This document shows, one piece after another, positions 1 to 6,021 of a DNA stretch of 6,021 bases. Each line of letters begins with the position of its first letter. The stretch's first letter is position 1. The notes below the pieces were generated by a model that was not told the DNA's origin, made no database searches, and worked only from the letters and a program-made list of their open reading frames with translations. Position numbers and translations under genes: made by a program. The stretch comes from a virus (lineage: Duplodnaviria; Heunggongvirae; Uroviricota; Caudoviricetes), in the IMG/VR virus record IMGVR_UViG_2778261504_000009, positions 1-6,021 of that record. The stretch is one strand, 5' to 3'.

Positions 1-926
1 TCGCAGTACTGGCCGATGACATACAGCGCCCATTTGTCCACATCCGCCGCACCAAGACGTTTCCCCATGCCGTAGCGTGGATGGGTCAGCATATCCCACA
101 GACACCAGGCCATGTTATTGCTGTATGCTGGCTTAAACGTTCCGTCCCAGATACCGCTGTATTGCCGAGTCTGCGGGTTATAGTTCGACGGCACCTGCAG
201 AATACGCCCGCGCAGATGATAATTACGGCTCACCTGCTGGCTGCCGAACTGCTCCGAATCCACCTGTACGCCGACCAGTGCCGTGTTCGGGTAGCACTGT
301 TTCACATCGATGATTTCGGTGTATGACGACCAGAGCGTTTTGTTCTGCAGCTGGTCTGTGGTGCTGTCCGGCGTCATCCTGCGCATCCGGATATTGAACG
401 GGCGCGGCGGCAGGTCACCCACCACCACCGAGGCCAGATACTGCGACGTGGTTTTGCCCTTAATGGTGATGTCTTTTTCCGTCACCCAGCCACCGTTACG
501 CTGTATCTGAACCAGCAGGCGGACTTCCGATGGATTCCTGTCCCCCTTTGAAGTGGTTTCCACCAGTGCCTGCACACCGAAGGTAAAGCGCAGACGGTCG
601 ATGTTTGCCGACGTAATGGTCCGGGTAATCGGCGTGTCGTACTTCACCTCCGTACCCAGCACCGTCTCGGAGTCGGAGGATTCAAATCCCTCCGGCGGTG
701 TCTGCTCCTGCTCACCAGCCCGGAACACCACCGTGACACCGGAGATATTGGTATTCCCCTCACTGTCCAGCACTGGCGTACTGTTCAGCAGCACACTTTT
801 TAATCCCTCCACCGGACCTTCAATCGGCCCTTCACTGATGGCGTCTATCACGCTCAGCAGCGGGGATGATTTCAGGTTGTCCTTCGCTTCGCGCGGGGTA
901 TGCCCCTTACTGCTGCCTTTACCCAT
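1..926 (-). CDS. J: Tail tip / host-specificity protein J, N-terminal ~308 codons; gene runs off the window at position 1
   Basis: Not in the ORF track because no stop lies in the window. Reverse complement from ATG (complement of 924..926) reads MGKGSSKGHTPREAKDNLKSSPLLSVIDAISEGPIEGPVEGLKSVLLNST..., and near the window edge ...RQYSGIWDGTFKPAYSNNMAWCLWDMLTHPRYGMGKRLGAADVDKWALYVIGQYC, which matches lambda gpJ as I remember it. Sits 60 nt downstream of the I stop, as in lambda. Confidence 0.9.
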   Translation of the reverse strand, partial: MGKGSSKGHTPREAKDNLKSSPLLSVIDAISEGPIEGPVEGLKSVLLNSTPVLDSEGNTNISGVTVVFRAGEQEQTPPEGFESSDSETVLGTEVKYDTPITRTITSANIDRLRFTFGVQALVETTSKGDRNPSEVRLLVQIQRNGGWVTEKDITIKGKTTSQYLASVVVGDLPPRPFNIRMRRMTPDSTTDQLQNKTLWSSYTEIIDVKQCYPNTALVGVQVDSEQFGSQQVSRNYHLRGRILQVPSNYNPQTRQYSGIWDGTFKPAYSNNMAWCLWDMLTHPRYGMGKRLGAADVDKWALYVIGQYC

Positions 927-986
927 TCCTCTCGCTCCAGAAACGACAAAACCGCCCGCAGGCGGTTTCACATAAAACATTTTGCA

Positions 987-1628
987 TCAGCGACCAATCA
1001 CCACAACCTGACCACCATCCCCTTCGTCTGCCGTGCTGATTTCCTGCGAAATTACCCGTGACCCCACACGCATTTCACCGTACAGAACAGGCAGAACATT
1101 GCCCTGGGCAACCATGTTATCCAGTGATGAGAAATACGTGTTCTGCTTACCGTTATCCGTGCTGGTCGTTGTTGCGGTACTCGCTTTCGGTGCCAGCATC
1201 TGTGCAACACCGCCAAGCGTCATCGCTGCACCCATTGAAAAGAGAATGTCACTGAAAGCGATACTGATCCCCGGCATCCAGATTGCCGTAGCAATCAACG
1301 CCGCACCCAGCACCGCCTGAAACACACCGCCACTTTTTGCTCCCGCAAGACGCGGCACGATGTGGATCACGGCACCATTTGCCAGCGGCTCATTAAGACG
1401 GGATGATAATTCGGTTTCGCCTGCATCACGCCCGGCAATCCGTACCTGATACCAGCCGTCGCTCAGTTTCTGACGAAACGCCGGGAGCTGTGTGGCCAGT
1501 GCGCGGATGGCTTCAGCCCCCGTTTTCACACGAAGGTCGATGCGGCGGCCAAATCGTTGTAAATCCCCGTAAAGGCAGATGCGTGCCATGCCCGGTGACG
1601 CCAGAGGGAGTGTGTGCGTCGCTGCCAT
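987..1628 (-). CDS. I: Tail assembly protein I (lambda gpI-like), 213 aa
   Basis: ORF-track translation MAATHTLPLASPGMARICLYGDLQRFGRRIDLRVKTGAEAIRALATQLPAFRQKL... ...NGKQNTYFSSLDNMVAQGNVLPVLYGEMRVGSRVISQEISTADEGDGGQVVVIGR matches lambda gpI N- and C-termini from memory. Its 5' end overlaps the 3' end of K by 103 nt out of frame, as in lambda. Confidence 0.9.
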   Translation of the reverse strand: MAATHTLPLASPGMARICLYGDLQRFGRRIDLRVKTGAEAIRALATQLPAFRQKLSDGWYQVRIAGRDAGETELSSRLNEPLANGAVIHIVPRLAGAKSGGVFQAVLGAALIATAIWMPGISIAFSDILFSMGAAMTLGGVAQMLAPKASTATTTSTDNGKQNTYFSSLDNMVAQGNVLPVLYGEMRVGSRVISQEISTADEGDGGQVVVIGR

Positions 1629-2263
1629 TTGTCGGTATACCTCTCTCGTTTGCTCAGTTGTTCAGGAATATGGTGCAGCAGCTCGCCGTCGCCGCAGTAA
1701 ATAGCGGCATGATTCGGCACCGATGAACCAAAACAGCACAGCAGCACATCGCCCGGCTGCGCCGCTGACAACGGCACCTGATACAGCCCCGTTGCCTCCA
1801 GATTATCCAGATAGAGATTCTGACCGTGACGCCACCAGTCATCCCCGCGATGAAAATCCGGCATCTCAATCCCCGCCAGATGGTAAGCATCCCGGAACAG
1901 TGTGTAACAGTCCGTCACCCCGTGCTCAAAGCGCCGCCCGGTGAGATGCGGCACACAGCGGAATTTATGAATCTCACCCCGGCAGACCAGCCACCACGGC
2001 AAATCACTCTGCACCTGCAGCCGCCGGTCAGCCTCACTCAGCCAGGGCAGGCCACCGGGGTGGCTGTGGACCAGCGCCACAATCTCACCCTGCATTTTGG
2101 CCTGCAGCCAGTCCTCCGGAGCCATCCGGAAATAATCCTCCGGCTCACCGGAGATATTCACGCAGGGAAAATATCTTTCCCCCTCCGGCGTTCTCACCAC
2201 GAAGCCGCACGACTCCGCTGGCGCACATCGCCGGGCGTGCGCCAATATATTGCTATAGAGCAT
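1526..2263 (-). CDS. K: Tail assembly protein K (lambda gpK-like) with MPN/JAMM and NlpC/P60 peptidase motifs; start placed at the ATG with a strong SD (245 aa)
   Basis: Translation carries a JAMM-type motif HSHPGGLPWLSEAD (HxHx7Sx2D) and NlpC/P60-like Cys/His contexts (GVTDCYTLF, SVPNHAAIY). The ORF-track start at 2302 is rejected because codons 2-13 lie inside a hairpin/U-tract (2276..2299). The ATG at 2261..2263 is preceded by AGGAG (complement of 2269..2273) with a 5-nt spacer. An internal ATG at 2123..2125 would give the 199-aa length I recall for the classical lambda K annotation, so the start is uncertain. Confidence 0.85.
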   Translation of the reverse strand: MLYSNILAHARRCAPAESCGFVVRTPEGERYFPCVNISGEPEDYFRMAPEDWLQAKMQGEIVALVHSHPGGLPWLSEADRRLQVQSDLPWWLVCRGEIHKFRCVPHLTGRRFEHGVTDCYTLFRDAYHLAGIEMPDFHRGDDWWRHGQNLYLDNLEATGLYQVPLSAAQPGDVLLCCFGSSVPNHAAIYCGDGELLHHIPEQLSKRERYTDKWQRRTHSLWRHRAWHASAFTGIYNDLAAASTFV

Positions 2264-2275
2264 GAGAACTCCTGA

Positions 2276-2299
2276 TAAAAAACCCAGCCGAAGCTGGGT
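2276..2299 (-). terminator. Putative intrinsic terminator after ant: 6-7 bp GC-rich stem, UUCG loop, U6 tract, directly 5' of the K ribosome-binding site
   Basis: Minus-strand RNA reads CCCAGC-UUCG-GCUGGG-UUUUUU-AUC-AGGAG-UUCUC-AUG. Plus strand shows cccagc (2283..2288), loop cgaa, gctggg (2293..2298), with an A6 run at 2277..2282. Confidence 0.5.
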
Positions 2300-2317
2300 C
2301 ATTTCGTTGGCAATCTG

Positions 2318-3238
2318 TTAGTAGTGATGCAGTGAAGGAGGTAATTCTTTGTTCTTAAGTCTTAGCCATGCAGAAAGATTCGTTGGTCCGTCTGGCTCAT
2401 TAATATCAATATCTCGCGTGTGATTGATTAAAACGTCTCTCGCCATTCCAATAACATACGAGAACTCATGACCGTAGTCGTAGCATCTGCAGGAATAGTT
2501 CGATTGAATTTGCTTTAGCGCCGGATACAGTTCGCGGAATAATGCCTGTGAGCGGTTAGCATAATCCCATAACCATACAAGGCTGTTTGCTTCTTTTGCA
2601 GAAAGCTCGTTGGTTTTCTTCTCTTGTTTGCCAATGAACTCACCTTCAAGCGGAACGCGAGCAGCAAGTGACAGTGCTTCGGTAAACTGCTCCTCACTAA
2701 TTTCTTTGTACGAACATCCAAAATGGGATTTCAGTGACGACCACATGGTGATCATCGCCTTCGCCTGTTTTTCTTTTGGCAGAGACTGACCGCGACTCAT
2801 GACAAGTTGTTTAATGGCTTCCTGCTGTTCAGTGGTGATTTTCCCCAGCAATGCCTTTTTAGCTTTGCGCGGGTTAATCACATGGCCTTTAGTCCAGTAC
2901 TCGTAGAGCACATCGTCACACTCTTCCTGATACTGGATTACCTTCTCGCGGATTTCAGGGCGGACTTTGTTAGGACTGATGGTTTGGAGCCAACCATTCA
3001 GTTTACGCAAAGCAAGGCAAATCATGGTCTGCATACCGCCAACTGAAGGTATTGCGATTTCCACAATACCTTTAGCAAATCTTTGTTTTAACTTTGTAAA
3101 CTGTGAAGCCCAATCCATACCCATTCCCTCAACGATAGGTTTCATTGGGGTGTACGGTTCGCCGTTGTGATTGACGACATAAAGCTCTGCGCCGTGGAAT
3201 GGCACGTTGATAGTAGATACCGCTGTTGCTATACTCAT
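2318..3238 (-). CDS. ant: Ant-like phage antirepressor (P22 immI Ant family), 306 aa from the ATG start
   Basis: Translation MSIATAVSTINVPFHGAELYVVNHNGEPYTPMKPIVEGMGMDWASQFTKLKQ... has the look of phage antirepressor proteins and sits immediately downstream of an Arc-like gene, the P22 arc-ant order. The ORF-track start at 3292 is a GTG inside a hairpin; ATG at 3236..3238 is preceded by AGGAA (complement of 3247..3251). Family assignment is from memory and context, not from a search. Confidence 0.75.
   Translation of the reverse strand: MSIATAVSTINVPFHGAELYVVNHNGEPYTPMKPIVEGMGMDWASQFTKLKQRFAKGIVEIAIPSVGGMQTMICLALRKLNGWLQTISPNKVRPEIREKVIQYQEECDDVLYEYWTKGHVINPRKAKKALLGKITTEQQEAIKQLVMSRGQSLPKEKQAKAMITMWSSLKSHFGCSYKEISEEQFTEALSLAARVPLEGEFIGKQEKKTNELSAKEANSLVWLWDYANRSQALFRELYPALKQIQSNYSCRCYDYGHEFSYVIGMARDVLINHTRDIDINEPDGPTNLSAWLRLKNKELPPSLHHY
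3207..3235 (+). promoter_or_regulatory. Near-consensus sigma70-type promoter firing antisense across the ant start (Psar-like)
   Basis: TTGATA (3207..3212), 17-bp spacer, TATACT (3230..3235), with TG at 3227..3228 giving an extended -10 (TGcTATACT). Predicted start near 3242. Confidence 0.4.
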
Positions 3239-3241
3239 TTC

Positions 3242-3312
3242 GTTAGTTCCTTGGAAGTTACTGACATAGAAGCCCGATTTGTGTTCGCGCACTGTCGGGC
3301 TTCGCTATTTTT
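3242..3312 (+). ncRNA. Candidate sar-like small antisense RNA (~70 nt) complementary to the ant SD and the arc-ant intercistronic region
   Basis: Bounded by the promoter at 3207..3235 and a hairpin with 9-bp stem gaagcccga (3269..3277) / tcgggcttc (3295..3303) followed by gcUAUUUUUAU (3304..3314). Coordinates are approximate. Size and position mirror the P22 sar RNA as I recall it. Confidence 0.35.
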
Positions 3313-3314
3313 AT
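3269..3314 (+). terminator. Hairpin plus U-rich tract in the arc-ant intercistronic region; candidate terminator for the antisense RNA
   Basis: Perfect 9-bp inverted repeat 3269..3277 / 3295..3303 with a 17-nt loop that can form an inner GUG/CAC stem, followed after 2 nt by tattttta. The U tract is not directly adjacent to the stem, hence modest confidence. Confidence 0.35.
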
Positions 3315-3478
3315 GTCCTAGCATTCTTCTCTCCAATCAGTCCGTACACTTTTCTCAATTGATAAATAAGTTCCGTGTTGAACTGTCGACACTCTTTTTC
3401 TCCATTTCTTTCAATCGCCTTCCTTACATCCTCTGGGAAACGAACCTTGCGTTGATACATGTCTTTTGCTTTTTCCAT
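3311..3478 (-). CDS. arc: Arc-like ribbon-helix-helix repressor, 55 aa (not in the ORF track)
   Basis: Hand translation of the reverse complement gives MEKAKDMYQRKVRFPEDVRKAIERNGEKECRQFNTELIYQLRKVYGLIGEKNART, stop TAA at complement of 3311..3313. Resembles P22 Arc (...FNLRWPREVLDLVRKVAEENGRSVNSEIYQRVMESF...) in the R-x-P-x-E-V strand and N-x-E-I/L-Y-Q helix. Preceded by AAGGAG (complement of 3484..3489) 5 nt before the ATG. Confidence 0.75.
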   Translation of the reverse strand: MEKAKDMYQRKVRFPEDVRKAIERNGEKECRQFNTELIYQLRKVYGLIGEKNART

Positions 3479-3495
3479 CTCCACTCCTTAAATAG

Positions 3496-3558
3496 CCTCA
3501 CTGTGGGGCAATCAAAATTGTCACACCGTGCGTCATTGAAGTCAACCCCACCGTGGGG
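3496..3558. promoter_or_regulatory. Operator-like sites: three CACYGTG cores at 25-bp phasing, two embedded in 13-bp palindromes
   Basis: Perfect palindrome ccccac-c-gtgggg (3546..3558) and near-palindrome cctcac-t-gtgggg (3496..3508) share the core CCNCACYGTGGGGCA. A third caccgtg lies at 3524..3530. The cores start at 3499, 3524 and 3549. Confidence 0.45.
3517..3545 (-). promoter_or_regulatory. Candidate Pant-like promoter for arc-ant
   Basis: On the minus strand: TTGACT (complement of 3540..3545), 17-bp spacer, GACAAT (complement of 3517..3522) preceded by TGT (extended -10 form). Predicted start near 3510, about 30 nt upstream of the arc ATG. Confidence 0.4.
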
Positions 3559-3564
3559 CATAAT
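3536..3564 (+). promoter_or_regulatory. Candidate Pmnt-like promoter for the Mnt-like gene, back-to-back with the arc-ant promoter
   Basis: TTGAAG (3536..3541), 17-bp spacer, CATAAT (3559..3564). Its -35 overlaps the -35 of the divergent minus-strand promoter by 2 bp. Confidence 0.4.
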
Positions 3565-3601
3565 TTACTTATTGTGAATTTTTCCTGTTTGGACTAATGG
3601 T

Positions 3602-3976
3602 ATGAGTAGAGAAGACCCTCAACTTCGGATTAGGCTTCCTGTTGAATTAAAAAAAATAATTGAAGCGTCATCAAAACAAAATAATCGTTCTATGAATGCT
3701 GAGATTGTCACTCTGCTTGAGTTGGCGATTCGTGTTTGTCGTGATTTTGGGCCGGAGGATGGTCCTATCGTTCAGCAGTTTAAAGAACAACTAGATGCGA
3801 TAAACAGAAAATATGATAAAAGCGAGCATGAAAAACTTATACCTCAACTTTTAGAAATCATAGAAAAACAGAAAAAACAAGTAGATAAACTTATTAGCAT
3901 GGTTGAAAGATCAATTCCTCTTTCAGAGGAATATAAGCAGAAATATCTTGGTGATGACAACAAAAAACCCACCTGA
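3602..3976 (+). CDS. mnt: Mnt-like ribbon-helix-helix repressor with an extended charged C-terminal region, 124 aa
   Basis: N-terminus MSREDPQLRIRLPVELKKIIEASSKQNNRSMNAEIVTLLELAI resembles P22 Mnt (ARDDPHFNFRMPMEVREKL...NGRSMNSELLQIVQDAL) as recalled. The C-terminal ~80 residues are K/E/Q-rich and probably helical. Divergent from arc-ant as in P22 immI. The SD is weak. Confidence 0.75.
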   Translation: MSREDPQLRIRLPVELKKIIEASSKQNNRSMNAEIVTLLELAIRVCRDFGPEDGPIVQQFKEQLDAINRKYDKSEHEKLIPQLLEIIEKQKKQVDKLISMVERSIPLSEEYKQKYLGDDNKKPT

Positions 3977-3983
3977 TGGTGGG
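3962..3983 (-). terminator. Putative intrinsic terminator 3' of L, overlapping the stop codon of the convergent Mnt-like gene
   Basis: Minus-strand RNA reads CCCACC-AUCA-GGUGGG-UUUUUUGUUGU. Plus strand shows cccacc (3968..3973), loop tgat, ggtggg (3978..3983), preceded by an A6 run (3962..3967). The mnt TGA stop (3974..3976) lies in the loop. Confidence 0.45.
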
Positions 3984-3992
3984 CATAATCCA

Positions 3993-4691
3993 TTACTGCG
4001 AAAGTTTGTTAATGGAAAGGAAGCCGCCAAAGTTGCCGACGTTATTGCGAAACTTACAGCCACTCAGGCATTTGCTGCATTTATCCTTCGTGATATCGGA
4101 CGTCGGCTGGTCATATTCATCCGCGACAGCCGGACCGTTATAACCGCACTCATCACCGCGATAGGTCCAGGTGCAGGTGTTGGCCAGCATGATACGCCCC
4201 GGAAAAACAGCGCCATCCGTTTCCGTCGGCGTGGCCAGTACAAAGGAGGCACTCACCGCGCTCAGTTCACTGCACTGCTCGATGCGCCAGCGGCTGATCA
4301 CCTCCTGCTCCGGATCGGCGTCACTGTTTCCGTTGACGAAGTTCACCGCATCCAGAAAACGGGCGTAAACCTTACGCCTGACCACCGTTCCGCCGACCAG
4401 ACTCTGCATATCTTCCACCATACCGGTGACCATGCCGTACAGGTTAGAGACTGCCAGCGTGGGCCGCGTACTGGTGCCTTTGCCATTCAGTTCAAAACCG
4501 CTCCCCTGAATGGGATACGCCTGATACTGCCTCCCCTGCCAGGTGATCGGCTCACCTTTTTCGTTCTGCTCATTACAGAAAAAATAACGTTCTCCACCGA
4601 CCTCTGTCAGGTCGATTTCCCAGAGCACCACGCTGGCCGACTGCTCCGCACGGGTGCATTCATTCAGTGTTTCCTGCCGGATATCCTGCAT
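3993..4691 (-). CDS. L: Tail tip protein L (lambda gpL-like), 232 aa
   Basis: Translation MQDIRQETLNECTRAEQSASVVLWEIDLTEVGGERYFFCNEQNEKGEP...CSKCLSGCKFRNNVGNFGGFLSINKLSQ matches lambda gpL from memory. Start overlaps the M stop by 1 nt (TGATG). Confidence 0.9.
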   Translation of the reverse strand: MQDIRQETLNECTRAEQSASVVLWEIDLTEVGGERYFFCNEQNEKGEPITWQGRQYQAYPIQGSGFELNGKGTSTRPTLAVSNLYGMVTGMVEDMQSLVGGTVVRRKVYARFLDAVNFVNGNSDADPEQEVISRWRIEQCSELSAVSASFVLATPTETDGAVFPGRIMLANTCTWTYRGDECGYNGPAVADEYDQPTSDITKDKCSKCLSGCKFRNNVGNFGGFLSINKLSQ

Positions 4692-5020
4692 CAGTTCACC
4701 ACCTGTTCAAACTCTGCGCTGAACTCAACACGCAGCATACTGACCCGCGACGACCATTTTGCGCAGGTCACCTTTATCTGCCGCCACTCATAAGGCGGCG
4801 TCCACAGAAAGGCTTTCCAGCCCCCGTGCTCTTCCAGAAACGACTCCAGTACCGTGGCCTCCTCACGGGGGACAGAAAGCGTCACGCTGTACGTTTTCAG
4901 GTTGGCATTCAGCCCGGCAGGCGCTCGCTGGGAATAGCCATCACCAAAGCGCACCTTTCTTACAGAAGGGGCCGAAGCCACATCCATACCGGGTTTCACT
5001 TTCCAGCGGAAGGTTTTCAT
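4691..5020 (-). CDS. M: Tail tip protein M (lambda gpM-like), 109 aa
   Basis: Translation MKTFRWKVKPGMDVASAPSVRKVRFGDGYSQRAPAGLNANLKTYSVTLSVPREEATVLESFLEEHGGWKAFLWTPPYEWRQIKVTCAKWSSRVSMLRVEFSAEFEQVVN matches lambda gpM from memory. ATGA overlap with the H stop. Confidence 0.9.
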   Translation of the reverse strand: MKTFRWKVKPGMDVASAPSVRKVRFGDGYSQRAPAGLNANLKTYSVTLSVPREEATVLESFLEEHGGWKAFLWTPPYEWRQIKVTCAKWSSRVSMLRVEFSAEFEQVVN

Positions 5021-6021
5021 CGTCCACCTCCGGAGAACAGGCCACCATCACGCATCTGTGTCTGAATTTCATCACGGGCACCCTTGCGGGCCATGTCATA
5101 CACTGCCTTCATCATCTGTGGACCTGGCAGACCATTCGTACCGTCGTTCTGAATCACCACGTGATTGTTCTGATTAAAATTAATGCCTTCAGCCCGCCGC
5201 ATCTGCGCCGGACTTCCGGCACCGCCCACATAACCACCTTCCGCATAGCCCCGCATCAGGCGGTACAGGTTGCCGACACCAATCCGGCTGGTTGCCTCCT
5301 TCGTGAAGACAAATTCACCACGGTGAACAATCCCCGCTGGCTCATATTTGCCGCCGGTTCCCGTAAATCCCCCGGTCGCGAAATGGAAGTTCGCCGCCGC
5401 AGCCTGAATGGCCGTCCCCGTGGAGGCAGACGCACCACCACCGAAAGCACCGCCAATGGCGCTGCCGATACTCCCGACTATCCCCACCATCGCCTGCTTC
5501 AGAAAAATCTCTGTCAGCATGGAGAGCACAGAACGGGTGAAACCACGCCAGTTCTGTTCGCTGCCGGTCAGCATCGCTGCCATATTCTGTGCAATACCGT
5601 CAAAGGTCTGCGTGGCCGCGCTTTTAACCTGCGAAAAACTGTCCGTCGCACTTTCCGCCCACTCGCCCCAGCCGGACTTCAGCCCGGCCATCCAGCTTCC
5701 ACGAAGCTGCTCCTCCGCAGACCAGGTGTTCTTCAGTGCAGATGTGGCCTTCGCCAGCGCAGCCGGATTATCACCGTACACGTCACGAAGGCGCTGCTCT
5801 TCCGACTCCCGCTGCGCCTGACGGTCGGTGAGGCCGCGGGCTTTTGCGCTGATGGCTGCCTGCTTCGCGCTCTGCTGCTGTTCAAACCGCGCCGCCTGCT
5901 GTGCCAGCTCATTCAGCCGTTTCTGGTGTTCAACCTTGTCGCCAAGCTCAGCCAGCTGGCGTTTGTACTCCAGCGTCTCTTTCTCATGGGTCAGCAGGGA
6001 TTTTTCCTGCTCAGATAACTG
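5017..6021 (-). CDS. H: Tail tape-measure protein H, C-terminal ~334 codons; 5' part lies beyond the window
   Basis: The frame is open from the window edge: reverse complement from 6021 reads QLSEQEKSLLTHEKETLEYKRQLAELGDKVEHQKRLNELAQQAARFEQQQSAKQAAISAKARGLTDRQAQRESEEQRLRDVYGDNPAALAKAT... and ends ...RDGGLFSGGGR, matching the lambda gpH C-terminus from memory. The ORF-track M at 5781 is an internal GTG (Val), not a start. Confidence 0.9.
   Translation of the reverse strand, partial: QLSEQEKSLLTHEKETLEYKRQLAELGDKVEHQKRLNELAQQAARFEQQQSAKQAAISAKARGLTDRQAQRESEEQRLRDVYGDNPAALAKATSALKNTWSAEEQLRGSWMAGLKSGWGEWAESATDSFSQVKSAATQTFDGIAQNMAAMLTGSEQNWRGFTRSVLSMLTEIFLKQAMVGIVGSIGSAIGGAFGGGASASTGTAIQAAAANFHFATGGFTGTGGKYEPAGIVHRGEFVFTKEATSRIGVGNLYRLMRGYAEGGYVGGAGSPAQMRRAEGINFNQNNHVVIQNDGTNGLPGPQMMKAVYDMARKGARDEIQTQMRDGGLFSGGGR

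Follow-up and report, generated by a model that had tools for sequence, protein, structure and literature searches.

Work on phage P22 in the 1980s made the underlying logic of its immunity I (immI) region textbook knowledge. In P22 the cassette is embedded in a late operon, with gene 16 on one side and the tailspike gene on the other, and its two divergent promoters overlap fully, with starts about 37 bp apart. Arc, the 53-aa protein that opens the ant operon downstream of the divergent mnt gene, is represented by PDB entries 1ARR, 1PAR and 1BDT. The region as a whole, mnt-arc-sar-ant, has been described as the 'ant moron' (Villafane et al. 2008, PMC2629481).

Ant modules are also found in lambdoid prophages of E. 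coli O157:H7, at the same site as the cassette described here, between the genes for minor tail protein L and the C40 peptidase K. These modules likewise carry Ant and two Arc-family genes, but their arc-type protein is a weak match to the one examined here (35% over 34 residues) and the Ant proteins are 48% identical. Additionally, Escherichia phage TL-2011b encodes an 'Arc-like repressor', gp41 (YP_007001992.1), which has the same length as the present protein (55 aa), is 79% identical to it in a tblastn comparison over residues 1-53, and is encoded upstream of an Ant gene. The control region is common to both loci, with the palindromes M and O1 (defined below) intact in the phage; however, TL-2011b has a different phage backbone and flanking genes, and its record shows a frameshift in the Mnt-like gene and a degenerate O2 palindrome.

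Here, a 6,021-nt stretch of DNA from a tailed virus (IMG/VR record IMGVR_UViG_2778261504_000009, positions 1 to 6,021; referred to throughout as the window) was analysed, with attention to a 55-codon frame that an initial annotation had singled out as an Arc-like gene completing a two-repressor module of the P22 type. The 55-aa Arc-family repressor gene most probably heads the arc-ant operon of a P22 immI-type cassette that has been inserted between tail genes L and K.

The arc-like gene

The frame and its ribosome-binding site are as follows.

3311-3478, minus strand: arc-like coding sequence, 55 codons plus stop, first cistron of the putative arc-ant operon
3489-3484, minus strand: Shine-Dalgarno sequence AAGGAG, followed by a 5-nt spacer (TGGAG) and then ATG

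Translation from the ATG at 3478-3476 to the TAA at 3313-3311 gives the product MEKAKDMYQRKVRFPEDVRKAIERNGEKECRQFNTELIYQLRKVYGLIGEKNART, and both the position of the frame and the 5-nt spacing of AAGGAG from the ATG are borne out. In a mechanical list of open reading frames the same frame begins two codons earlier, at a GTG at 3484 (57 aa), although this alternative start falls within the Shine-Dalgarno sequence itself. A start codon, ATG or GTG, occupies the same column as the window ATG (3478) in 12 related loci, and a GGAG or GGA motif stands at the same place before the start in 12/12 of these. The ribosome-binding site had been called near-perfect. AAGGAG-N4-9-ATG is found a single time in the 6 kb window against 0.35 occurrences expected by chance, and since at least one occurrence was obtained in 58/200 shuffles, the site alone is not significant. 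The gene is therefore judged real from its conservation and from purifying selection, rather than from its ribosome-binding site. The frame had also been described as unlisted. Its absence is due to a length cut-off only, and RefSeq annotates the identical coding sequence in two E. coli genomes, as "hypothetical protein" WP_001579610.1, while homologues are named as Arc family.

Comparison with relatives leaves little room for the view that the frame arose by chance in AT-rich intergenic DNA and yields no protein. The window does contain 55 open reading frames of at least 30 aa, and the insignificance of the Shine-Dalgarno-plus-ATG pattern by itself would also suit that view. Conversely, the frame is open in 13/13 compared loci from about ten enterobacterial genera, most of the other frames being interrupted by stops across the same loci, and nonsynonymous divergence (pN 0.04-0.17) is far below synonymous divergence (pS 0.66-0.96, values at which pS is saturated), with omega ∼0.065 where computable. 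No frameshifted copies with conserved flanks were found among the close relatives compared, 129 homologues with a conserved start column were recovered across Enterobacterales, and the product has significant homology to Arc (below). The proposed check of frame and Shine-Dalgarno conservation in related prophages thus came out in favour of the gene; the chance-frame reading is refuted by the pN/pS and open-frame comparisons over the 13 loci and is hardly credible. The 55-codon frame is a real gene under purifying selection.

Relationship of the product to Arc

The Pfam Arc model (PF03869) scores the 55-aa protein at 19.2 bits (E = 0.0011), 1.2 bits short of the gathering cut-off of 20.4, and it is because WP_001579610.1 falls just below this cut-off that it carries the label "hypothetical protein" in RefSeq. 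Some homologues have a precomputed PF03869 match, and 21/30 close homologues match the model at E <= 0.01 (best 8.8e-6); the family straddles the Pfam cut-off. The PHROG 'Arc-like repressor' profile matches the protein at 1.3e-5, and BLASTP against P22 Arc gives E = 2e-5, at an identity of only 33%. A scan with NCBIfam models returned no match, and a single-sequence search of PDB sequences returned no Arc entry, its matches, to de novo designed proteins (the best) and to primase, all being spurious.

Alignment by hhalign places residues 5-43 against Arc 5-43 without a gap, at a probability of 45%, and the family profile compared directly with Arc is weak (E 0.06-0.15). Residues retained from P22 Arc in the gapless alignment are M7, Q9, R13, P15, V18, R31, N34 and E36. 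The signature comprises alternating polar or basic residues in the strand, then a proline, and an R-x-x-N-x-E motif opening helix B; Q9, K11, R13, P15, R31, N34 and E36 are column-matched to Q9, N11, R13, P15, R31, N34 and E36 of Arc, and all seven vary little or not at all within the family. The recognition strand thus differs from that of Arc in having K11 in place of N11, and an NG pair lies four residues earlier in helix A than it does in Arc.

An exhaustive HMMER search with the family profile among 1.8 billion sequences recovered 43 representative proteins at E <= 1e-3. When 38 of these and the window protein were scanned, 31 of the 39 aligned sequences were assigned to Pfam Arc, the window protein itself scoring nothing at the scan threshold. 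Compared with solved structures, the profile of these remote relatives matched AmrZ (1.6e-10), Arc (2.2e-9) and Mnt (9.8e-8). Searching proteins a second time by word index, with the family profile as the query, yielded no more distant relatives among the 120 matches listed. The Arc signature claimed for the translation, for which a profile search had been suggested as a check, is upheld by the remote-relatives matches to Arc and Mnt and by the PHROG match, and the assignment of the 55-aa product to the Arc family of ribbon-helix-helix proteins is supported.

Structure prediction points the same way. A first AlphaFold model from a shallow alignment had a pLDDT of 65 and no fold match, whereas a model built from another alignment (A4), in which remote Arc-family sequences dominate, reached a pLDDT of 87 and has an extended stretch at residues 1-15 and two helices, 16-28 and 33-44; being a monomer, the model cannot form the strand. 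The predicted strand-helix-helix topology is that of P22 Arc. P22 Arc chains occupy Foldseek ranks 1-8 for this model, at probabilities of 0.97-1.0, followed by AmrZ, CdbA and CopG. The E-values of these Foldseek matches are no better than about 0.06, which is expected for a domain of 55 residues.

Neighbouring genes and the site of insertion

The genes on either side of the arc-like gene, and the edge of the module, are as follows.

2318-3238, minus strand: ant antirepressor gene, 306 aa, with Pfam matches to P22_AR_N (1e-44) and P22_AR_C (4e-29); a RefSeq coding sequence has the same coordinates
3602-3976, plus strand: divergent Mnt-like gene, 124 aa, with an N-terminal ribbon-helix-helix domain (Pfam Arc, E = 3e-7)
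3967-3984, minus strand: terminator-like hairpin and T-run directly after tail gene L, at the upstream edge of the inserted module

Full-length comparison of Ant with P22 Ant gives 56% identity, and no sense-strand terminator was predicted between the arc-like gene and ant. The Mnt-like protein, named 'Arc family DNA-binding protein' in RefSeq, shares 33% identity with P22 Mnt over residues 1-43 (E = 2e-10), with no similarity to Mnt past residue 43. Across 11 loci its N-terminus, MSREDPQLRIRLP, hardly varies, while its C-terminal domains differ even among related loci. The divergent gene lies about 125 nt upstream of the arc-like gene in 11/11 related loci. GC content falls from ∼0.57 to 0.35-0.46 across 2300-4000, and the cassette separates tail gene L from tail gene K, both lambda-like, in an E. 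coli prophage.

The nature of the gene that follows bears on whether the 55-aa protein might have another role, as an antitoxin-like partner or as a factor acting on the Ant protein. Antitoxins often have ribbon-helix-helix domains; further down the Foldseek list the predicted model matches the antitoxins VapB, MazE and AtaR, among others, and remote relatives of the family also match FitA-like and HicB families. However, the best matches by sequence and fold are to Arc itself, and the protein has 55 aa only, without a C-terminal toxin-binding extension. Furthermore, no toxin gene follows: the next gene encodes an Ant homologue in the window and in TL-2011b, and a P22_AR_N or Bro-N protein in the 10/10 other related loci tested. 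The antitoxin reading was rejected on this last count, and any such alternative role is very improbable. With a conserved Arc-type gene at the head of its antirepressor operon, this is most probably an ordinary P22-style "immunity I" cassette set among lambda-like tail genes.

Predicted promoters and candidate operators between the divergent genes

Consensus scans and inspection for palindromes of the region between the arc-like and Mnt-like genes gave the following features.

3495-3509, no strand assigned: O1, Omnt-like palindrome, GCCTCACTGTGGGGC on the plus strand, beginning 7 nt after the -10 hexamer of the Pant-like promoter
3517-3545, minus strand: predicted Pant-like promoter, TTGACT (3545-3540), 17-nt spacer, GACAAT (3522-3517)
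3519-3535, no strand assigned: M, imperfect 17-bp palindrome, TGACGCAC-G-GTGTGACA in the arc sense, inside the Pant-like spacer
3536-3564, plus strand: predicted Pmnt-like promoter, TTGAAG, 17-nt spacer, CATAAT
3545-3559, no strand assigned: O2, perfect 13-bp palindrome CCCCAC-C-GTGGGG (3546-3558), in the Pmnt-like spacer and adjoining the Pant-like -35 hexamer

The Pant-like promoter is nearly invariant in sequence across genera and agrees in layout with P22 Pant, and the Pmnt-like hexamers are conserved in related loci. The two predicted promoters stand back to back, and because only their -35 hexamers overlap, their predicted starts are ∼61 bp apart, in contrast to the arrangement in P22.

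The usual form of O1 in relatives is GCC(C/T)CACGGTGGGGC, from which the window copy departs at two positions, and P22 Omnt is GGTCCACGGTGGACC; the central CCACGGTGG is common to Omnt and to the usual form, and both operators begin 7 nt past the -10 hexamer. A candidate Mnt-type operator thus appears to overlap the start of the Pant-like promoter. M lies in a 49-nt control block that is identical at 43-49 of its 49 positions across related loci in several genera, and occupies the position in the promoter spacer held in P22 by the annotated Oarc, but it shows no sequence resemblance to Oarc (21 bp, with TAGA half-sites). We propose M as a candidate operator for the Arc-like protein, a pairing suggested by its position. 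O2, a second candidate operator of the Mnt type within the Pmnt-like promoter, has no counterpart at this position in P22.

A CAC-N-GTG core is common to M, O1 and O2, the centres of the three sites (3502, 3527 and 3552 for O1, M and O2) are spaced 25 bp apart, and the recognition strands of both repressors, YQRKVRF in the Arc-like protein and PQLRIRL in the Mnt-like protein, conform to Q-x-(K/R)-x-R. With the core and the strand motif held in common, the assignment of sites to proteins is not secure. The two proteins might exchange sites, the Arc-like protein acting at O1 and O2 and the Mnt-like protein at M, or both might bind all three with different affinities; and as proteins and sites alike are invariant across loci, no covariation separates one assignment from another. 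Such an exchange or sharing of sites is nevertheless distinctly unlikely, given that O1 has the core sequence of P22 Omnt and lies at precisely the same distance from the -10 hexamer, that M is at the Oarc position, and that the N-terminus of the Mnt-like protein, SREDPQLRIRLP, is closer to that of Mnt, ARDDPHFNFRMP, than is the Arc-like protein. The preferred assignment remains the one modelled on P22, with M for the Arc-like protein and O1 and O2 for the Mnt-like protein.

Predicted sar-like antisense RNA

Two further features lie on the strand opposite ant.

3207-3235, plus strand: predicted Psar-like promoter, TTGATA, 17-nt spacer, TG-TATACT, 10/12 consensus positions
3242-3312, plus strand: predicted sar-like antisense RNA of ∼71 nt, with a 5' stem-loop, a terminator hairpin (3269-3303) and a U-run

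The promoter lies within the first codons of ant. Its -10 hexamer, TATACT, is also that of P22 Psar at the equivalent place, and a TAnnnT hexamer is present at the same offset in 12/12 loci. The predicted RNA would cover the Shine-Dalgarno sequence of ant (3247-3252), and its folding energy is -28.3 kcal/mol (z = -4.7).

A search of the whole window against Rfam found nothing, and a 151-nt search with the Rfam sar model (RF00262) gave a sub-threshold match at 3242-3306 on the plus strand (15.6 bits against a threshold of 43, E = 0.84). RNAalifold likewise gave no consensus structure for the antisense RNAs aligned with MAFFT, owing to indels that shift the hairpins out of register. The comparison of folds was therefore made instead by folding each sequence separately and counting pairs stem by stem. 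In these per-sequence folds the two-hairpin structure is also predicted for 11 relatives and for P22 sar, and the bases of stem pairs change yet stay paired, with, for example, five pair types at pair 8 of the terminator. The locus thus appears to have the architecture of sar: a promoter in the start of ant, and a predicted two-hairpin RNA of ∼70 nt complementary to the ant ribosome-binding site.

Discussion

The gene order and orientation of the P22 immI region are found here, together with an Ant orthologue, an Omnt-like palindrome at the same 7-nt offset, a conserved palindrome within the spacer of the promoter, and a predicted antisense RNA that shares with sar its -10 hexamer, two hairpins and length; the cassette is, moreover, embedded in a late operon and runs in the direction of late transcription, as it does in P22. 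The claim that the P22-type two-repressor logic is complete can therefore be endorsed as regards its components, namely the divergent Mnt-like gene, Ant, the Omnt-like operator and the predicted sar-like RNA. The regulatory layout, however, is a variant of that of P22 and not a copy. The cassette stands between siphovirus tail genes and has no sieA gene, the C-terminal domain of its Mnt-like protein is unrelated to that of Mnt, the proposed Arc-like operator is without TAGA half-sites, the promoters are back to back, and O2 is additional.

Homology with P22 suggests how the cassette might work, from dimerisation of the repressor and the pairing of sites with proteins to the activity of the promoters and the production of the antisense RNA. 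The Arc-like protein would dimerise, its two N-terminal strands forming a two-stranded sheet that would present Q9, K11 and R13 to read the major groove of DNA. Binding of this dimer to M could then, shortly after infection or induction, stop production of both the Arc-like protein and Ant. In the lysogen, the Mnt-like repressor may keep the Pant-like promoter off via O1 and O2, and the sar-like antisense RNA would block the ant ribosome-binding site.

A more distinctive view of the control region is that three CAC-N-GTG operators at 25-bp spacing, read by two repressors with near-identical recognition strands, constitute an immI design of their own, in which the repressors may compete, cross-bind or co-occupy. 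This is offered tentatively and is on balance rather unlikely. Were it correct, the Mnt-like gene would gain direct autoregulation through O2. The control core of ∼70 bp is almost invariant in about ten enterobacterial genera and is paired with interchangeable antirepressors (P22_AR_N or Bro-N) and Mnt C-terminal domains; under the same design it would be a portable switch.

For the most part the outcome is a correction of annotation, in which WP_001579610.1 becomes an Arc-type repressor and its neighbourhood a complete immI-type cassette for antirepressor control. The near-invariant three-operator region would additionally provide a compact, testable model of two small ribbon-helix-helix repressors sharing one promoter region. 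Cassettes of the immI type decide, via the antirepressor, the inducibility of the prophage or the induction of co-resident prophages, and antirepressor control of this kind is relevant to the lambdoid prophages of pathogenic E. coli.

The arc-like gene and its genomic setting

The window comprises a minus-strand lambda-like tail operon (tape-measure gene, M, L, K and I), with a low-GC stretch of 1.7 kb (0.35–0.46 versus ~0.57) between L and K that contains three genes, namely a divergent 124-aa gene, a 55-aa gene and ant:

2318–3238, minus strand: ant
3311–3478, minus strand: arc-like CDS of 55 codons (ATG 3478–3476, TAA 3313–3311)
3489–3484, minus strand: arc-like Shine-Dalgarno sequence AAGGAG, followed by a 5-nt spacer (TGGAG) and the ATG
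3602–3976, plus strand: divergent Mnt-like gene, 124 aa

The minus-strand sequence at the arc-like start reads ...TATTTAAGGAGTGGAGATGGAAAAAGCA..., and the initial annotation, which had described a 55-aa frame with AAGGAG 5 nt ahead of ATG 3478, was correct in its coordinates and description. A mechanical ORF list extends the frame to 57 aa from GTG at 3484, a codon that falls within the Shine-Dalgarno sequence. The ribosome-binding site by itself proves nothing, since AAGGAG-N4-9-ATG, present once in the window, occurred at least once in 58 of 200 shuffled sequences.

The Ant protein shares 56% identity with P22 Ant along its entire length. The N-terminus of the 124-aa protein is of the ribbon-helix-helix type (Pfam Arc, 3e-7) and is 33% identical to P22 Mnt residues 1–43, the remainder being unrelated to Mnt. 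This N-terminus (MSREDPQLRIRLP), near-invariant across loci, is encoded ~125 nt upstream of the arc-like gene on the opposite strand at 11 of 11 loci from other genera, and in each of 10 loci tested the arc-like gene is followed by one for a P22_AR_N or Bro-N protein. The arc-like gene therefore regularly heads an antirepressor operon that stands under a divergent gene of the Mnt type. For all their almost invariant ribbon-helix-helix domain, the Mnt-like proteins have exchanged C-terminal domains: a helical tail ends the 124-aa window protein, the proteins of most other genera (142–151 aa) carry another conserved domain, and that of one locus has 87 aa.

A terminator-like hairpin with a T-run (3967–3984, minus strand) sits right behind the tail gene L stop codon, where it overlaps the Mnt-like 3' end. 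Late transcription must cross it and the entire cassette before reaching K, I and J, just as that of P22 traverses the mnt-arc-sar-ant region (immI) on its way to the tailspike gene. Tail gene K (1526–2302) has a mechanical ORF start at 2302 (258 aa) and a RefSeq start at 2263 (245 aa, C40 family peptidase), the latter giving an inserted module of ~2264–3992. A 19-nt inverted repeat (3229–3247 and 3593–3611, 15/19 complementary, ACTAAyGrwATGAGTAkAG) makes the ant and Mnt-like start regions resemble each other; it was not apparent by eye at the corresponding starts in three other loci, and is probably due to chance.

Conservation and distribution

The arc-like frame was compared codon by codon with 11 genomic loci from other genera and with phage TL-2011b (NC_019445). 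It is open in every case, with non-synonymous divergence of 0.04–0.17, saturated synonymous divergence of 0.66–0.96 and, where computable, an omega of ~0.065, while most alternative frames contain stops. The start codon (ATG or GTG) occupies the same column as ATG 3478 in 12 of 12 related loci, each with a preceding GGAG or GGA motif, so that the frame and its Shine-Dalgarno sequence are both conserved, as the initial annotation had proposed to check. The arc-like frame is a real gene.

It is also already partly captured by public annotation. A RefSeq CDS matching it exactly (WP_001579610.1, "hypothetical protein") is present in the chromosomes of two swine E. coli, whose compared stretches show 99.7–99.9% identity to the window. 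A word-indexed search returned 129 homologues at 65–100% identity in Escherichia, Klebsiella, Salmonella, Raoultella, Enterobacter, Citrobacter, Buttiauxella, Cronobacter, Kluyvera, Lelliottia, Cedecea, Rosenbergiella and others, many of them already named "Arc family DNA-binding protein", and the TL-2011b homologue is "Arc-like repressor" in RefSeq. Within E. coli, this arc-plus-control sequence is rare, being found in 38 of 5426 complete genomes (2 copies almost the same as that of the window, plus 36 TL-2011b-type copies with ~78% identity); among deposited phages only TL-2011b has it.

Family membership and predicted structure

Single-sequence evidence that the protein is Arc-like is marginal. 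Pfam Arc scored 19.2 bits (gathering score 20.4, E = 0.0011), PHROG 228 "Arc-like repressor" matched at 1.3e-5, and BLASTP against P22 Arc gave 33% identity over 40 residues (pairwise E 2e-5); NCBIfam yielded nothing usable, and a PDB sequence search only spurious designed proteins. Indeed, the Pfam cut-off runs through the family, 21 of 30 members matching Arc at E ≤ 0.01, with the result that PGAP gives the Arc family name to part of the members and calls the rest hypothetical.

Profile comparison aligned residues 5–43 gap-free to Arc 5–43, with Arc positions Q9, R13, P15, R31, N34 and E36 kept and K11 replacing N11; the aligned signature columns are invariant or near-invariant within the family. 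When 1.8 billion sequences were searched exhaustively by HMMER, the family profile recovered 43 representative proteins (E ≤ 1e-3), 38 of which were aligned with the window protein. Pfam Arc was found in 31 of these 39 sequences (best 1.3e-37), and the profile of this deeper alignment matched the solved structures of Arc (2.2e-9), Mnt (9.8e-8) and AmrZ (1.6e-10) and a deposited "Arc family DNA-binding protein" (8.7e-10). The Arc signature read from the 55-aa peptide is thus borne out, and the gene product belongs to the Arc family.

The outcome of AlphaFold2 prediction depended on alignment depth: a shallow alignment gave a model with pLDDT 65 and no fold matches, and a deeper one, relying on remote Arc-family rows, a model with pLDDT 87 and pTM 0.65, comprising an extended N-terminus and helices at 16–28 and 33–44. 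The best eight Foldseek matches to the latter were all P22 Arc chains (probability 0.97–1.0, TM 0.53–0.80), followed by AmrZ, CdbA, ribbon-helix-helix antitoxins and CopG, with E-values of only ~0.06, as is usual for such short domains.

Control DNA

In the arc sense, the control region reads ATTATG-CCCCACGGTGGGG-TTGACT-tcaaTGACGCACGGTGTGACAAT-tttgatt-GCCCCACAGTGAGGC-tattt-AAGGAG. Consensus scans and comparison with the annotated P22 record gave the following features:

Minus (arc) strand: predicted Pant-like promoter, TTGACT-17-GACAAT
Plus strand: predicted Pmnt-like promoter, TTGAAG-17-CATAAT
3495–3509: O1, an Omnt-like palindrome 7 nt after the -10 hexamer, the exact offset of P22 Omnt
3519–3535: M, a 17-bp imperfect palindrome filling the Pant-like spacer
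3546–3558: O2, a perfect copy of the O1-type palindrome inside the Pmnt-like spacer

The predicted promoters lie back to back with overlapping -35 hexamers, and the centres of O1, M and O2 (3502, 3527 and 3552) are 25 bp apart. O1 usually has the form GCC(C/T)CACGGTGGGGC, its central CCACGGTGG being common to Omnt (GGTCCACGGTGGACC), whereas O2 has no equivalent in P22, and M occupies the position of Oarc but is unrelated to it in sequence. Two such O1/O2-type sites within 50 bp are unusual for the window (0.23 expected; two reached in 5 of 200 shuffles). In TL-2011b, O2 is degenerate (GCCTCACCGTGTGC) and O1 and M are intact; the Mnt-like gene of this record (~2972–3064) carries a +1 frameshift after codon 9 (extra G in CTAAGG-G-ATCAGA), as a result of which RefSeq annotates only a downstream-ATG ORF (gp40) without the DNA-binding strand.

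The 49-nt block from -10 hexamer to -10 hexamer is 43–49/49 identical across genera while adjoining synonymous sites are saturated, and the control DNA is therefore under strong constraint. Position and similarity to Omnt would make O1 and O2 the sites of the Mnt-like protein and M that of the Arc-like protein, an assignment that we consider evenly balanced. The two proteins may also cross-bind, given the CAC-N-GTG core common to the three sites and the likeness of the recognition strands (YQRKVRF and PQLRIRL); since both the block and the Mnt-like N-terminus are near-invariant, covariation cannot pair sites with proteins.

A putative sar-like RNA

An antisense RNA is predicted at the arc-ant junction:

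3207–3235, plus strand: Psar-like promoter, TTGATA-17-TG-TATACT (10/12 consensus positions), within the first ant codons
~3242 to ~3312, plus strand: sar-like transcript, which would cover the ant Shine-Dalgarno sequence (3247–3252)

P22 Psar has this very -10 hexamer in the equivalent position. The RNA is predicted to form a 5' stem-loop, then a terminator hairpin (3269–3303) and a U-run (-28.3 kcal/mol, z = -4.7). The same two hairpins were found in antisense segments of 10 related loci (L004–L008, L010, L012–L014 and TL-2011b) and in P22 sar itself, each with a TAnnnT hexamer at the same offset; stem positions vary yet stay paired, with five pair types at terminator pair 8. The Rfam sar model matched end to end at 3242–3306 with 15.6 bits, below the threshold of 43; the candidate RNA would work like sar but fails the family test. 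Two Proteus loci, L009 and L011 (P. penneri and P. faecis; ~3175–3220), are without the intercistronic hairpin; their arc-ant spacer is shorter, and the arc-like gene and control region are kept.

The TAnnnT hexamer opposite ant codons 2–4 (3230–3235 in the window), 6 nt from the start codon, was always present in L004–L014, TL-2011b and L015. It is retained although the encoded antirepressors vary in N-terminus and in domain type (P22_AR_N or Bro-N), which points to a constraint of the antisense promoter on the antirepressor coding sequence.

Comparison with P22

For the mnt-arc-sar-ant region of P22-like phages, Villafane et al. 2008 (PMC2629481) use the names immunity I region and "ant moron", and regard it as a variable element inserted into the late operon; phage L lacks arc and ant (PMC8022706). 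The window cassette is of the same kind, but differs from P22 immI in its place between genes L and K, within a siphovirus tail operon of lambda-like type, in having a second Mnt-type operator and a different promoter geometry, and in the non-homologous C-terminal domain of its Mnt-like protein. At the same L-K junction, E. coli O157 prophages have a different Ant and two Arc-family genes.

The initial proposal that the arc-like gene completes a two-repressor logic of the P22 type is supported by the similarity of Ant to its P22 counterpart and by the divergent Mnt-like gene. Overall, we are confident, short of certainty, that the arc-like gene is real, of the Arc family and, by homology and synteny, has a role in the ant operon, where its product would act as an early-acting autoregulatory repressor. 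There is a modest chance that this three-operator, two-repressor core works differently from that of P22.
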